From the IMG/VR virus record IMGVR_UViG_2869965101_000004: a DNA stretch of 52,029 nucleotides; one strand, written 5' to 3'. Origin of the DNA: a virus (taxonomy: Duplodnaviria; Heunggongvirae; Uroviricota; Caudoviricetes). Below are positions 29,382-39,626 of the stretch, piece by piece (the first letter of the stretch is position 1; every line of letters starts with the position of its first letter). A model generated the notes under the pieces. That model had not been told where the DNA came from. It did not search any database and saw nothing but the letters and a program-made list of their open reading frames with translations. The translations under genes were made by a program, and so were the position numbers.

Positions 29382-29596
29382 AATGTTTCCCCATATTCAG
29401 TGTTGCTGATTTGTATTATCTGAAGTTGCTTTTACGTTAATTTGATGCAGATCAATCAATACGATAGTAAGGCAGTATGACTTTCCGTGAGACAGATGCT
29501 GGCCAACGTGGGATATTTAACGCGGGTTAACATCGTTGTCAGAGCCGCATGGGTGAGCTGTTGCTACACCCCGGTATTTCCACCACGGAGGCCAGC

Positions 29597-30724
29597 ATGA
29601 ACAACAATAACACATTGTACGTCGGGTTAGATGTTCACAAAGAATCGATTACTGTCGCTTATGCTATCAATTCAGAACCTGTTGAACTGATGGGTAAAAT
29701 TGGCACATCACCTACTGATATTCAGAATCTTTGTAAACGTCTCAGGTCAAAGTCATCGCAGGTCAGTATCGTTTATGAAGCGGGGCCCTGTGGTTATGGA
29801 CTTTATCGTCGGCTGGTGAAATCCGGTTTTGACTGCATGGTCTGCGCCCCCTCACTTATCCCGAAAAAACCGGGGGAGCGGGTTAAAACCGATCGCCGTG
29901 ATGCCATCAGACTTGTGCGTTCACTGCGTGCAGGAGATCTTTCTGCTGTCTACGTACCCGGCATTGAAGATGAGGCATTCCGGGATTTGGCCCGGGCATG
30001 GGCATCTGCCCGCGATGATTTACGGCATGCAAGGCAACGTCTGAAATCGTTTCTTCTGGTTCATGGGGTCCATTATGTCGGGCGAGCAGATTGGGGCCCT
30101 GCACACCGACGCTGGCTCAGCAAATACTCATTCGAAAGTCCCTGGCGACAATTAGCTTTTGACGAACACCGTCGTACAATAGAAGACCGGCAGGCACAAT
30201 GTGAACGGCTGGAATCCGCCCTGAAGGAGGCCGTTACCGAATGGAGGCTGTATCCGGTAGTAGAGGCGCTGCAAGCCATGCGAGGGATTCAGTTTATTAC
30301 TGCGGTTGGATTAATTTCTGAACTGGGTGATCTGACCCGTTTTGAACATCCACGACAACTGATGTCATGGTTTGGTATCACGCCATCAGAATATTCATCG
30401 GGTGGAAGCAGACATCAGGGCAGCATTACCAAAGCCGGAAACAGCTATGCCAGAAAGCTATTGGTCGAGGCAGCGTGGAGTTACCGTCATCCGGCACGCA
30501 TCAGTCCGGCAATACAAAAAAGGCAGGAAAATTTACCCCGCCCCGTCATTGACAGAGCATGGGATGCTCAACTCAGGCTTTGTAAGAGGTATCGAAAACT
30601 TCAGGCCAAAGGAAAGAATGTCAATATTACAATTGTTGCTGTTGCACGTGAGCTGGCGGGTTTTATCTGGGATATGGGCCGAATAGCAATGTCTGTCGCA
30701 CAACAACCACAATGTCACAAATAA
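29597..30724 (+). CDS. IS110-family (DEDD) transposase/recombinase
   Basis: N-terminal LYVGLDVHKESI... RuvC-like start and C-terminal ...QFITAVGLISELGDLTRFEHPRQLMSWFGITPSEYSSGG. Confidence 0.8.
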   Translation: MNNNNTLYVGLDVHKESITVAYAINSEPVELMGKIGTSPTDIQNLCKRLRSKSSQVSIVYEAGPCGYGLYRRLVKSGFDCMVCAPSLIPKKPGERVKTDRRDAIRLVRSLRAGDLSAVYVPGIEDEAFRDLARAWASARDDLRHARQRLKSFLLVHGVHYVGRADWGPAHRRWLSKYSFESPWRQLAFDEHRRTIEDRQAQCERLESALKEAVTEWRLYPVVEALQAMRGIQFITAVGLISELGDLTRFEHPRQLMSWFGITPSEYSSGGSRHQGSITKAGNSYARKLLVEAAWSYRHPARISPAIQKRQENLPRPVIDRAWDAQLRLCKRYRKLQAKGKNVNITIVAVARELAGFIWDMGRIAMSVAQQPQCHK

Positions 30725-31016
30725 AAAATGAGAATAACCAGTTCCCTGAAGGCGACGTAGCCCGGTACAAGAGTAACCCACGTTAGCGCTTGGCGACGGC
30801 GGAACAAAGCTGATTCGCGACGTAAGAAAGTGGCAGGCTCATATGACGGACCTCTGTAATGCGGTATCCAACCCGCGAATATCAGCGTGATTCACCGTCG
30901 GATTTACTGCTACGTCGCCCTCAGGGAATTAAACCTAAAAAGAAAATCGTCAAAATTAGAGATTCCGGTTTGACACGGAAAGTCATATCAGCGTCAACGG
31001 AGCACCGTATTGACGC

Positions 31017-32609
31017 TTATTTATTGGTGAGTGCTACGTTCCATGGCAGGAGTTCGTCAACACGGTTGGAAGGCCATTCCGGCAGTACGCTCAGGATATA
31101 GCGCAGATACGCTTCCGGATCGATACCGTTCAGTCGGCAGGTGCCGATCAGCCCGTACAGTAGCGCACCACGCTCTCCACCGTGATCGCTGCCGAAGAAC
31201 ATAAAGTTTTTCTTTCCGAGACAGACTGCACGAAGCGCTCTTTCCGCGGCATTATTATCCGCCTCAGCCAGACCATCATCACTGAAGTTGCACAACGCAA
31301 CCCAGTGCTTCCTGATATACCGGAACGCATCTCTCAGACGGCATTTTTTCGATAACGTGTGTTCTTTCTCCTGCATCAGCTTATACAGGGAAGTCAGTAG
31401 CGGTTTACTCTGCATTTGCCTGACCGCCAGGCGTTCAGACACCGGCAACCCGCGTATTTCGTGCTCGATGGCGTACAGCTCACCGATTAGTTTCAGGGCT
31501 TCTTCCGCTGTCGCGCTTTTGGTACTGATATATACATCGTGGACTTTGCGCCGCGCATGAGCCCAGCATCCTGCTTCCGTCAACGCGCCGCCTTCTCGTT
31601 CGGCACTGAACAGCCGATCGTAACCATTAAACGCATCTGCCTGCAGGATACCCCGGAAGGGACTAAGGTGCTGCTCCGGATGTTTACCCTGATGGTCCGG
31701 TGAGTAGGCGAACCAGACCGCCGGAGGCTCTGGCGAACCGGCATTCCTGTCATCCCGGACATACGTCCAGATATATCCTGTTTTCGCCTTCTTCCTGCCC
31801 GGTGCCAGCACTTTTACTGGTGTGTCATCAGTGTGAACTTTGCGGCTGTTCATCACATAACGGTACAGAGCATCATTCAGCGGCGTCATTAACTGGCAGC
31901 ACGCGTCAACCCAGTTGGAGAGTAATGCACGGCTCAGTTCGACACCCTGACGGGCAAAAATTTCACTCTGACGATACAGTGGCAGGTGTTCGCAGTATTT
32001 TCCCGTTAACACGCGGGCAAGTAACCCCGGGCCCGCGATACCACGCTCTATCGGACGGGATGGTGCCGGTGCTTCAACGATGCAGTCACATTTTGTACAG
32101 GCTTTTTTTACCCGTTCTGTGCGGATCACTTTCAGAGCGCTGCTCACCAGTTCCAGTTGTTCTGCGCTGACTTCCCCCAGATAATCCAGCTCACCGCCAC
32201 ACTCCGGGCAACAGCTTTCTTCTGGCTCCAGGCGATTTATTTCGCGGGGCAGATGCTCCGGTAACGGGCGACGATGACGAGACTGTCGCAACTGGCGGGG
32301 AACCTGCGGATCGTCTTCCCGCCCACTGTAACGATCACTGTCCTGTTCGCGTTGTTTCAGCAGGGCCTCAGCCTGTTCAACTTCACGACGCAGTTTTTCA
32401 GAACGGGTACCGAACAGCATCCGGCGCAGTTTTTCTATCTGAGCCCGCAGATGTTCTATTTCCCGTTCATCTTCTTCGATCTTTTCTTCGGCGCGGGCCA
32501 GTGCAGAGCGCAGGAAGGCCTCCGTCTCTTCAACCAGACTCAGTTGCTGGTCTTTCTGACGGAGCTGGCATTCCAGTTCTGCAATGCGAATGAGGTATTT
32601 TTGATTCAT
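31017..32609 (-). CDS. IS66-family TnpC transposase
   Basis: 530-aa ORF with leucine zipper, CxxC zinc finger and DDE region typical of IS66 TnpC. Confidence 0.85.
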   Translation of the reverse strand: MNQKYLIRIAELECQLRQKDQQLSLVEETEAFLRSALARAEEKIEEDEREIEHLRAQIEKLRRMLFGTRSEKLRREVEQAEALLKQREQDSDRYSGREDDPQVPRQLRQSRHRRPLPEHLPREINRLEPEESCCPECGGELDYLGEVSAEQLELVSSALKVIRTERVKKACTKCDCIVEAPAPSRPIERGIAGPGLLARVLTGKYCEHLPLYRQSEIFARQGVELSRALLSNWVDACCQLMTPLNDALYRYVMNSRKVHTDDTPVKVLAPGRKKAKTGYIWTYVRDDRNAGSPEPPAVWFAYSPDHQGKHPEQHLSPFRGILQADAFNGYDRLFSAEREGGALTEAGCWAHARRKVHDVYISTKSATAEEALKLIGELYAIEHEIRGLPVSERLAVRQMQSKPLLTSLYKLMQEKEHTLSKKCRLRDAFRYIRKHWVALCNFSDDGLAEADNNAAERALRAVCLGKKNFMFFGSDHGGERGALLYGLIGTCRLNGIDPEAYLRYILSVLPEWPSNRVDELLPWNVALTNK

Positions 32610-38235: not shown

Positions 38236-39363
38236 TTATTTGTGACATTGTGGTTGTTGTGCGACAGACATTGCTATTCGGCCCATATCCCAGATAAAAC
38301 CCGCCAGCTCACGTGCAACAGCAACAATTGTAATATTGACATTCTTTCCTTTGGCCTGAAGTTTTCGATACCTCTTACAAAGCCTGAGTTGAGCATCCCA
38401 TGCTCTGTCAATGACGGGGCGGGGTAAATTTTCCTGCCTTTTTTGTATTGCCGGACTGATGCGTGCCGGATGACGGTAACTCCACGCTGCCTCGACCAAT
38501 AGCTTTCTGGCATAGCTGTTTCCGGCTTTGGTAATGCTGCCCTGATGTCTGCTTCCACCCGATGAATATTCTGATGGCGTGATACCAAACCATGACATCA
38601 GTTGTCGTGGATGTTCAAAACGGGTCAGATCACCCAGTTCAGAAATTAATCCAACCGCAGTAATAAACTGAATCCCTCGCATGGCTTGCAGCGCCTCTAC
38701 TACCGGATACAGCCTCCATTCGGTAACGGCCTCCTTCAGGGCGGATTCCAGCCGTTCACATTGTGCCTGCCGGTCTTCTATTGTACGACGGTGTTCGTCA
38801 AAAGCTAATTGTCGCCAGGGACTTTCGAATGAGTATTTGCTGAGCCAGCGTCGGTGTGCAGGGCCCCAATCTGCTCGCCCGACATAATGGACCCCATGAA
38901 CCAGAAGAAACGATTTCAGACGTTGCCTTGCATGCCGTAAATCATCGCGGGCAGATGCCCATGCCCGGGCCAAATCCCGGAATGCCTCATCTTCAATGCC
39001 GGGTACGTAGACAGCAGAAAGATCTCCTGCACGCAGTGAACGCACAAGTCTGATGGCATCACGGCGATCGGTTTTAACCCGCTCCCCCGGTTTTTTCGGG
39101 ATAAGTGAGGGGGCGCAGACCATGCAGTCAAAACCGGATTTCACCAGCCGACGATAAAGTCCATAACCACAGGGCCCCGCTTCATAAACGATACTGACCT
39201 GCGATGACTTTGACCTGAGACGTTTACAAAGATTCTGAATATCAGTAGGTGATGTGCCAATTTTACCCATCAGTTCAACAGGTTCTGAATTGATAGCATA
39301 AGCGACAGTAATCGATTCTTTGTGAACATCTAACCCGACATACAATGTGTTATTGTTGTTCAT
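38236..39363 (-). CDS. IS110-family transposase/recombinase, copy B
   Basis: Identical to 29597..30724. Confidence 0.8.
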   Translation of the reverse strand: MNNNNTLYVGLDVHKESITVAYAINSEPVELMGKIGTSPTDIQNLCKRLRSKSSQVSIVYEAGPCGYGLYRRLVKSGFDCMVCAPSLIPKKPGERVKTDRRDAIRLVRSLRAGDLSAVYVPGIEDEAFRDLARAWASARDDLRHARQRLKSFLLVHGVHYVGRADWGPAHRRWLSKYSFESPWRQLAFDEHRRTIEDRQAQCERLESALKEAVTEWRLYPVVEALQAMRGIQFITAVGLISELGDLTRFEHPRQLMSWFGITPSEYSSGGSRHQGSITKAGNSYARKLLVEAAWSYRHPARISPAIQKRQENLPRPVIDRAWDAQLRLCKRYRKLQAKGKNVNITIVAVARELAGFIWDMGRIAMSVAQQPQCHK

Positions 39364-39493
39364 GCTGGCCTCCGTGGTGGAAATACCGGGGTGTAGCAAC
39401 AGCTCACCCATGCGGCTCTGACAACGATGTTAACCCGCGTTAAATATCCCACGTTGGCCAGCATCTGTCTCACGGAAAGTCATACTGCCTTAC

Positions 39494-39626
39494 GTTTCCT
39501 GATTTAACACCACGCCATCTTGACCATCTGAAAACCCTTATTGCGAAGGGGGCAAATCAGTGTGCGCGGGCAGGGGATAAATTACCGGATTTACTCGATG
39601 AATATATCAGAGCAACAACTGAATAA
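39494..39626 (+). pseudogene. nu1: terminase small subunit Nu1, 3' fragment (~42 codons)
   Basis: ...DLTPRHLDHLKTLIAKGANQCARAGDKLPDLLDEYIRATTE* parallels the lambda Nu1 C-terminus and overlaps the A start. Confidence 0.7.

Follow-up and report, generated by a model that had tools for sequence, protein, structure and literature searches.

Two oppositely oriented copies of a 4,026-bp composite IS unit, bounded by crossed 8-bp duplications, enclose a 709-bp segment that carries cosN and the 5' part of the small terminase gene Nu1, and alignment to an intact relative indicates that, in the ancestral order, this segment pointed the other way. The window is the whole 52,029-nucleotide stretch of Caudoviricetes DNA that was analysed (IMG/VR record IMGVR_UViG_2869965101_000004), and is identical to CP026762.1. 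On balance, the inversion was probably made by two insertions of an IS66-family element followed by RecA-type recombination between the copies. The features of the locus are listed in Table 1.

Table 1. Features of the inverted cos-Nu1 locus (window coordinates).
Feature	Coordinates	Strand	Description
Target octamer x, ATACGATA	29459..29466	+	Flanks arm A on its outer, left side
Arm A, 4026-bp composite unit	29467..33492	- (= tnpA/B/C strand)	IS66-family element with ISSso6 nested in its left tip
ISSso6, 1520 bp	29470..30989	+	IS1111-type of the IS110 family; splits the IS66 left inverted repeat after GTA and before AGCG
ISSso6 tnp CDS	29597-30724		
ISSso6 non-coding region, 265 nt	30725-30989		
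IS66 tnpC, 530 aa	31017..32609	-	Intact in arm A; NF033517, 2.6e-134
IS66 tnpB	32640-32990	-	NF033819
IS66 tnpA	32987-33406	-	NF047595
Truncated Nu1 fusion ORF	33458..33877	-	128 Nu1 codons and an 11-codon IS-derived tail; PF07471
Inverted 709-bp phage segment	33493..34201	-	Reverse alignment to L019; in order, reverse complement of y (33493-33500), Nu1 5' part, cosB region, cosN, reverse complement of x (34194-34201)
Lambda-type cosN 12-mer, GGGCGGCGACCT	34061-34072	-	Within the 709-bp segment
Arm B, opposite-orientation copy of the 4,026-bp unit	34202..39493	+	Interrupted by IS600; ISSso6 copy at 37971-39490
IS600, IS3 family, 1263 bp	35393..36655	+	Inside arm B tnpC, with a 3-bp GGT duplication
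Target octamer y, GTTTCCTG, and orphan Nu1 3' end	39494..39626 (octamer 39494-39501)	+	
Terminase large subunit gpA	39598..41526	+	Intact; GpA_ATPase and GpA_nuclease (PF05876/PF20454); start set by colinearity with L019 21806

A repeat search returned two inverted blocks, 29467-32309/36651-39493 and 32301-33492/34202-35393, which together with a comparison of the arms confirms the proposal of an earlier, sequence-only reading that the 4,026-bp unit is present as two inverted copies. That reading had called the arms exact reverse complements, but two bases differ (29620, C versus T; 32808, A versus T), and a third apparent mismatch lies within the junction overlap. The arms are 4026 and 5292 bp long; their difference of 1266 bp had been given as the length of an IS600 insertion in the second arm, and whereas the presence of IS600 in arm B holds, the length comprises a 1,263-bp IS600 plus its 3-bp duplication. 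GTAAG is found, as proposed, at both arm ends when these are read from the outside inward. When all four flanking octamers were compared, they matched exactly in the crossed pattern that had been claimed: the octamer left of arm A (ATACGATA) is the reverse complement of that left of arm B (TATCGTAT), and the octamer right of arm B (GTTTCCTG) is the reverse complement of that right of arm A (CAGGAAAC). The probability of such a match by chance is 1.5e-5 per octamer and 2e-10 for both.

The intact prophage of E. coli ARS-C301 aligns to the window as forward, reverse and forward blocks whose overlaps are exactly the two octamers, with the 709-bp segment aligning in reverse to L019 21001-21709 (98.9%). 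Both octamers are single-copy in this prophage, with x at L019 21001-21008. A restored sequence, from which both units were removed and in which the 709 bp were flipped, matches the intact E. coli prophage in one piece with 100% coverage and 98.9% identity. Inverted copies, duplications exchanged reciprocally between them and relatives with the un-inverted order are thereby all found, and the block order of ARS-C301 and the one-piece match bear out the inversion that had been proposed for the cos-Nu1 segment.

Site x lies 121 bp upstream of cosN and site y falls at Nu1 codon 128. The Nu1 fragment ORF covers only positions 62-142 of the PF07471 profile, and the rejoined 169-aa Nu1 covers positions 62-163 of the Phage_Nu1 profile unbroken over the junction, in keeping with the claim that Nu1 is split and that its ends, the tail being at 39494-39626, are colinear when joined. 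The lambda-like arrangement of cosN, then Nu1, then gpA is found in the restored order only, and an E. coli relative is annotated with both the small and the large terminase subunit. Nu1 is interrupted in either orientation of the segment. Because it is cut at y in both, packaging is impossible for this prophage and the flip does not work as a functional switch; on this ground, a role of the flip in turning packaging on and off was rejected.

The IS66-family element is 2506 bp long without ISSso6 and carries tnpA, tnpB and tnpC (DDE TnpC), which all score above the cut-offs of NF047595, NF033819 and NF033517. Its terminal inverted repeats open with GTAAGCG; the right end is GTAAGCGTAAACTG, and the left end is GTAAGCGTCAACGG in the ISSso6-free copies L001, L021, L028 and L029 and is broken after GTA by ISSso6 in the window. 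Perfect direct 8-bp repeats surround six other IS66 copies (L002, L021, L024, L025, L028, L029), so that the assignment of 8 bp as the duplication length of this element was correct.

The transposase of ISSso6 matches NCBIfam IS110 (NF033542) at 2e-81 and the Pfam domains DEDD_Tnp_IS110 (PF01548) and Transposase_20 (PF02371), and at its N-terminus it agrees exactly with the ISSso6 sequence given in the supplement of PMC11187229. IS1111-type elements are characterised by 11-13 bp subterminal inverted repeats, 7-bp left and 3-bp right extensions and a long non-coding region downstream of tnp (PMC11187229). The ends in the window read AGGCAGT-ATGACTTTCCGTG ... CACGGAAAGTCAT-ATC, with 13-bp subterminal inverted repeats and extensions of 7 bp on the left and 3 bp on the right, and the 265-nt region downstream of tnp is strongly structured (fold z = -4.6). 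Two short matches in this region, AGCGCUU (30784-30790) and CGUAAG (30820-30825), are candidate guide segments of a putative seekRNA/bridge RNA, which would pair with the two strands of the target. An Rfam scan of positions 27000-41000 returned no bridge-RNA family; its only matches, to AfaR at the IS66 right ends, were below threshold. All nine ISSso6 sites, namely that in the window and eight others with equal boundaries, have the form GTA-IS-AGCG(Y) in one orientation relative to the target; insertion is orientation- and site-specific and occurs without target duplication. The targets comprise IS66 tips of several lineages, including one IS66 right end (L022), and non-IS sites.

ISSso6 entered different IS66 lineages independently, and ISSso6-free IS66 copies with identical TnpC exist. 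In a SNP comparison, the ISSso6-free L021 and the composites L024 and L025 (one genome) share marker A at 3530, and the ISSso6-free copies of another genome form their own group. Whether the IS110-type part is nested or cargo had been posed as a check, and it is a nested insertion that lies 3 bp in from the left tip of IS66. The further claim that the IS110-type gene moved within the IS66 element is not supported, given this position, the site specificity, the multiple lineages and the ISSso6-free copies. Since ISSso6 lies only 3 bp inside the tip, the octamers flank the composite whichever element came first, and since it is site-specific at IS66 tips and non-IS sites, flanking duplications are no proof of joint travel with IS66; the caution applies to any reading of duplications around a nested composite as evidence that its parts moved together. 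Copying of ISSso6 between the arms by gene conversion was ruled out, because the homology beyond ISSso6 amounts to only 3 bp. No description of ISSso6 targeting the IS66 GTAAGCG tip was found in the searchable literature, and its aim at IS66-family tips could help to define its guide RNA.

The same arrangement is present in three independent complete assemblies (CP026762.1, CP001063.1, CP026867.1), S. boydii CDC 3083-94 among them, and the exact truncated-Nu1 fusion protein occurs in three complete and five draft assemblies. Since the inner junctions move together with the segment, the junction ORF cannot tell flipped from un-flipped, and orientation is readable only in long contigs, where the strand can be compared with that of gpA. 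The segment is inverted in all three complete genomes; in four drafts it is an isolated contig with the IS66 right end on both sides and its orientation is unreadable, and the fifth draft contig (L010) is chimeric. Looking for the un-inverted arrangement in relatives, as had been suggested, gave a partial answer: intact E. coli prophages show the IS-free ancestral order, but neither the un-inverted two-copy state nor a lone insertion at one of the two sites was found in 5,426 E. coli genomes and protein-indexed assemblies. The IS-phage junctions at x and y gave no match of at least 80% query coverage in the 5,426 complete E. coli genomes.

The assignment of IS600, with orfA/orfB and an rve domain, follows from NF033516, the ends TGAGG...CCTCA and the GGT repeats on either side, and from 99.7% identity with annotated IS600 elements. 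The same insertion lies in arm B in the window and in arm A in CDC 3083-94, which speaks for exchange between the arms, although the 2008 Sanger assembly may have misplaced it. Both arms carry the derived bases that are specific to a strain (unit position 3473 T in the window, 3514 T in CDC 3083-94), and this sharing shows that recombination between the arms is continuing.

In the explanation favoured here, an IS66-family element would have entered a lambdoid prophage of a Shigella boydii lineage at two sites 693 bp apart and in opposite orientations, with the insertions at x and y each creating their own 8-bp duplication. RecA-type homologous recombination between the ~4-kb inverted copies would have flipped the DNA between the crossover points, leaving the duplications crossed and cos and the first 128 Nu1 codons facing away from the terminase large subunit. 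ISSso6, which is likely to be RNA-guided and targets the GTAAGCG tip of IS66 ends, may have pre-dated the second IS66 insertion, in which case the composite moved, or may have struck each copy separately, and IS600 would have entered tnpC of one arm in a later step. We infer that the events took this order and that homologous recombination, not transposition itself, produced the flip. Against this account, two insertions 693 bp apart in a 4.6-Mb genome would be a coincidence unless hopping is local, and the searches recovered neither an un-inverted two-copy genome nor one with an insertion at x alone or y alone.

A single copy at x or y could instead have undergone intramolecular replicative transposition in inverse orientation into the other site, which would at once make the second copy, invert the 693 bp and split the new 8-bp duplication. 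This one-step route is plausible, if less probable: it predicts exactly the flank pattern observed and accounts jointly for the proximity, the inverted orientation and the crossed flanks, and it agrees with the inverted state of all three complete genomes and with the lack of intermediates in the 5,426 E. coli genomes and protein-indexed assemblies. Since the two-step route would yield the same product, the sequence does not positively discriminate between the two; the sequence-only reading had named both mechanisms, and these are the right alternatives, which the flank pattern cannot separate. If ISSso6 was already in place, the element would have depended for transposition on a left end of which no more than the first 3 bp (GTA) are IS66-derived and no more than the first 5 (GTAAG) match the IS66 left tip. 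We know of no demonstration of replicative (Shapiro-type) transposition for the IS66 family and of no described cointegrate pathway for the TnpA/TnpB/TnpC system, and nothing on a replicative mechanism for IS66 was found in the searchable literature.

A combined reading, in which the 4,026-bp composite is itself the mobile unit, with the IS66 transposase working on its hybrid left end, the inversion was a single intramolecular replicative event and ISSso6 is seekRNA-guided with IS66-family tips as its natural target, is unlikely as a whole. If true, the single-event composite inversion would be the first evidence of IS66-family replicative transposition, and ISSso6 would be an IS that parasitises another IS family.

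An assembly artefact, with genuine IS copies but with the 709 bp (and hence the octamer crossing) oriented arbitrarily by assemblers unable to span the 4-5.3-kb inverted repeats, is very improbable. The symmetry of the inner cassette (right end - x ... y - right end) means that reads shorter than an arm cannot orient the segment; drafts leave it as an orphan contig, and the position of IS600 differs between two assemblies. Three assemblies from different technologies and strains nevertheless agree on the orientation, and arm-specific SNPs are resolved in the assemblies, so the arms were not collapsed. Inversion by the DEDD recombinase of ISSso6, acting on copies that do lie inverted at both outer tips, is scarcely credible: according to PMC11208160, inversion of the DNA between two sites in a suitable orientation is within the reach of bridge/seekRNA recombinases, but recombination in this family joins a donor junction with a target and not two left ends, the crossed repeats are of the 8-bp IS66 type and lie at IS66 tips, and nothing in the sequence requires such a route.

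The locus is a base-by-base record of IS activity disabling a Shigella prophage, in which the packaging site and the small terminase gene have been severed from the packaging operon and the prophage locked in place, and it offers a clean natural example of gene conversion between the arms of an IS inverted repeat. As in the cos-Nu1-A module of lambda, the cosN 12-mer is identical and Nu1 is followed by gpA with equal gene order and overlap; unlike in lambda, cos and the Nu1 5' part face the opposite way, and 5.3 kb of IS DNA stand between them and the Nu1 3' end and gpA. With cos and the Nu1 5' part thus inverted and separated from gpA, the module is non-functional. ISSso6 resembles IS1111-type elements in its subterminal repeats, extensions and downstream non-coding region and in its insertion into the end of another mobile element, at a fixed position, in one orientation and without duplication; what differs is the target, the GTAAGCG tip of IS66-family ends. 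For the IS26/IS6 family, Tn3 and Mu, intramolecular replicative transposition predicts a second inverted copy, an inverted segment and a duplication split between inner and outer flanks; for the IS66 family, unlike for these elements, no replicative route is known. The closest parallels are IS-IS inversions in Shigella, Yersinia pestis and Bordetella pertussis, which share the inverted copies, the exchanged duplications, the ancestral order in relatives and the disrupted gene. The present case differs in that the repeat is a nested composite (IS66 and ISSso6, with IS600 in one arm) and that the segment is very small, only 709 bp, so the two insertions would have been unusually close. The combination of inverted IS copies and crossed duplications is a textbook signature, so the mechanism adds nothing new, and the event is a real but ordinary instance of the IS-driven decay of a Shigella boydii prophage.

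The 709-bp segment between the two IS arms (33493-34201), which bears cosN and the first 128 codons of the Nu1-type small terminase, is inverted relative to the ancestral order. When both units were deleted, one copy of each octamer kept and the segment flipped, the restored 2709-bp sequence matched the prophages of E. coli ARS-C301 and CB6837 in a single piece, with 100% coverage and 98.9% identity. Direct BLAST comparison of the ARS-C301 region (L019) with the window gave three blocks, aligned forward, reverse and forward, and the two target sites are the 8-bp overlaps between these blocks, each single-copy in this intact relative. 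The inversion proposed in a sequence-only reading of this region is thus borne out, and the un-inverted order, for which that reading advised searching related genomes, is present in both prophages.

Features of the window bearing on the inversion and its surroundings
Feature	Window position	Length	Orientation	Remark
PBP5/6-type carboxypeptidase gene	1-1026			chromosomal flank
Q antiterminator	19862-20683
DNA methylase	21258-22307			between Q antiterminator and nanS-like esterase
nanS-like esterase	23478-25358
L019 19936-21008	28394-29466		forward	BLAST block
Arm A	29467-33492	4026 bp
ISSso6	29470-30989	1520 bp		breaks IS66 left end after GTA
L019 21001-21709	34201-33493		reverse	BLAST block
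Lambda cohesive-end 12-mer GGGCGGCGACCT	34061-34072		minus	within 709-bp segment
Arm B	34202-39493	5292 bp
IS600 in arm B	35393-36655	1263 bp		IS3 family; ends TGAGG...CCTCA; 3-bp GGT duplication either side
L019 21702-29643	39494-47435		forward	BLAST block

The flanks show the crossed pattern as described, with ATACGATA left of arm A and its complement left of arm B, and GTTTCCTG right of arm B and its complement right of arm A (chance probability ~2e-10); both arms also begin with GTAAG from the outside inward. A repeat search of the window returned two inverted blocks (29467-32309/36651-39493 and 32301-33492/34202-35393), so that the arms are reverse complements but not exact ones as had been claimed, with mismatches at 29620 (C/T) and 32808 (A/T); what looks like a third is mere overlap at the insertion junction. 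The extra DNA of arm B is indeed IS600 (99.7% identity to elements so annotated), but the 1,266 bp assigned to it are the element plus one GGT duplication. Sub-threshold Rfam matches to the AfaR sRNA lie over the IS66 right ends (33414-33507 and 34105-34303; 37 and 49 bits versus a gathering score of 100); a remnant of an IS66 end is probably built into the AfaR model.

Nu1 is split and, as predicted, colinear on rejoining: the match of the 169-aa product to the Phage_Nu1 profile runs unbroken over the junction (profile positions 62-163), and that of the fragment alone ends at position 142. Downstream gpA is intact. Whichever way the segment points, Nu1 is interrupted at the target site in codon 128; the flip therefore does not work as a switch, and packaging by the prophage is impossible. 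Elsewhere the window is consistent with a lambdoid prophage in decay beside a PBP5/6-like gene. Further IS3-family transposase genes with rve domains break its early region (3447-5841 and 9043-10316), and a gene for a DnaB-like replicative helicase, divided between two ORFs (16782-17660 and 17692-18183), is thus a pseudogene. No stx was found in the window, including 19862-25358, whereas ARS-C301, the closest intact relative, carries stx1A/stx1B (stx1a) in the place of the DNA methylase.

The arrangement recurs in other genomes. CP026762.1 is 100% identical to window 23458-43877, and Shigella boydii CDC 3083-94 (CP001063.1; PMC3972513) and CP026867.1 share the junction ORF and the arrangement. 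Four draft assemblies have the 709-bp segment as an orphan contig, with an IS66 right end on each side; in a fifth draft contig (QWTX01000450.1), 110 bp of internal IS66 sequence is joined directly to the middle of the segment, the product either of a further rearrangement or of a chimeric join in the assembly graph. Neither IS-phage junction was present in any of the 5,426 complete E. coli genomes searched.

Both window arms have T at unit position 3473 (window 32939/34755), where C stands elsewhere, and both CDC 3083-94 arms have T at position 3514 (window 32980/34714), where A stands elsewhere; such strain-specific derived bases common to both arms indicate gene conversion between the inverted copies. 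IS600 occupies the same site, with the same GGT duplication and orientation relative to tnpC, in the terminase-side arm B of the window and CP026762.1 and in the TonB-side arm A of CDC 3083-94, and interrupts tnpC in neither arm of CP026867.1. The window copy has a 1-bp deletion versus that of CDC 3083-94. The difference in arm is due either to two exchanges between arms or to misplacement in the 2008 Sanger assembly.

Two routes to the inversion had been put forward; both predict an identical product, and the flanks do not separate them. The truncated Nu1 ORF is likewise identical in the flipped and un-flipped states, because the segment takes its inner junctions with it when it flips, and long contigs, the only kind informative for orientation, are inverted in three of three cases. 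Two insertions followed by homologous recombination between the copies is the somewhat favoured route, since the arms demonstrably recombine with one another and IS66 is, to our knowledge, not documented to transpose replicatively. That a single intramolecular event made both the second copy and the inversion is a lesser but real possibility, which the 693-bp spacing genuinely favours and against which the same lack of precedent in IS66 counts. An assembly artefact is highly improbable, as three assemblies are concordant and resolve arm-specific SNPs too.

The right 2.5 kb of the unit is an IS66-family element with tnpA, tnpB and tnpC, whose expected left end, GTAAGCGTCAACGG, is given by uninterrupted relatives and ISSso6-free copies of the same element. 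The IS110-type part, left by the sequence-only reading as nested insertion or cargo, is a nested insertion of ISSso6, identified from NCBI annotation and from the sequence of this element given in the supplement of PMC11187229, and displays the IS1111-type hallmarks which that paper lists. It has 13-bp subterminal inverted repeats, ATGACTTTCCGTG / CACGGAAAGTCAT, with extensions of 7 bp on the left and 3 bp on the right. The 265-nt non-coding region 3' of tnp (30725-30989) forms a much more stable fold than shuffled controls do (z = -4.6). Within it lie two candidate guide segments, first AGCGCUU (30784-30790), able to base-pair with the target AAGCGY, and then CGUAAG (30820-30825) in the target sense. 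Both are short matches; their order is the one described for IS1111-type seekRNAs.

The duplications had been taken to mean that the IS110-type gene moved as part of the IS66-like element. This inference is unsound, the only such flaw in an interpretation that is otherwise mostly right and an observation that is correct: with ISSso6 lying inside the IS66 tip, 8-bp duplications would surround the composite regardless of the order in which the two elements arrived. Perfect 8-bp duplications surround both ISSso6-free IS66 copies with identical TnpC in related genomes (L021, L028 and L029) and composites (L002, L024 and L025). Relative to the window, the E. coli FDAARGOS_943 composite has ~10 differences in the IS66 part and none in ISSso6, and CP102947.1 shares 98.8% identity in ISSso6 versus 91.5% over the whole unit, placing its IS66 part near 87%. 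By these comparisons, ISSso6 demonstrably entered different IS66 lineages independently. The composite may be mobile, and at the window locus it is about as likely that it moved as that ISSso6 struck each copy separately. Gene conversion copying ISSso6 from arm to arm is ruled out, since the homology on its outer side is limited to 3 bp. The right flank of one composite, L020 (TAATTTTC), is the left flank of L022, a double-ISSso6 copy in another genome, a match implying that IS66 copies in those genomes have recombined or rearranged with one another.

ISSso6 sites were surveyed at window 29467-29475 and 30985-31000 and at loci L011-L018 and L022, and comprise IS66 left tips, one right tip and three unrelated chromosomal sites. 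Nine insertions all read GTA-ISSso6-AGCG(Y), in one orientation relative to that target; the three outside IS66 lie in a transketolase gene, a primase gene and the nhaA-mokC spacer, and the right-tip insertion is in L022, an IS66 copy which has ISSso6 in both ends. No description of the GTA^AGCG(Y) target was found in the searchable literature. ISSso6 is an IS aimed at a tip conserved in another IS family, analogous to IS4321/IS5075 on the ends of Tn21.
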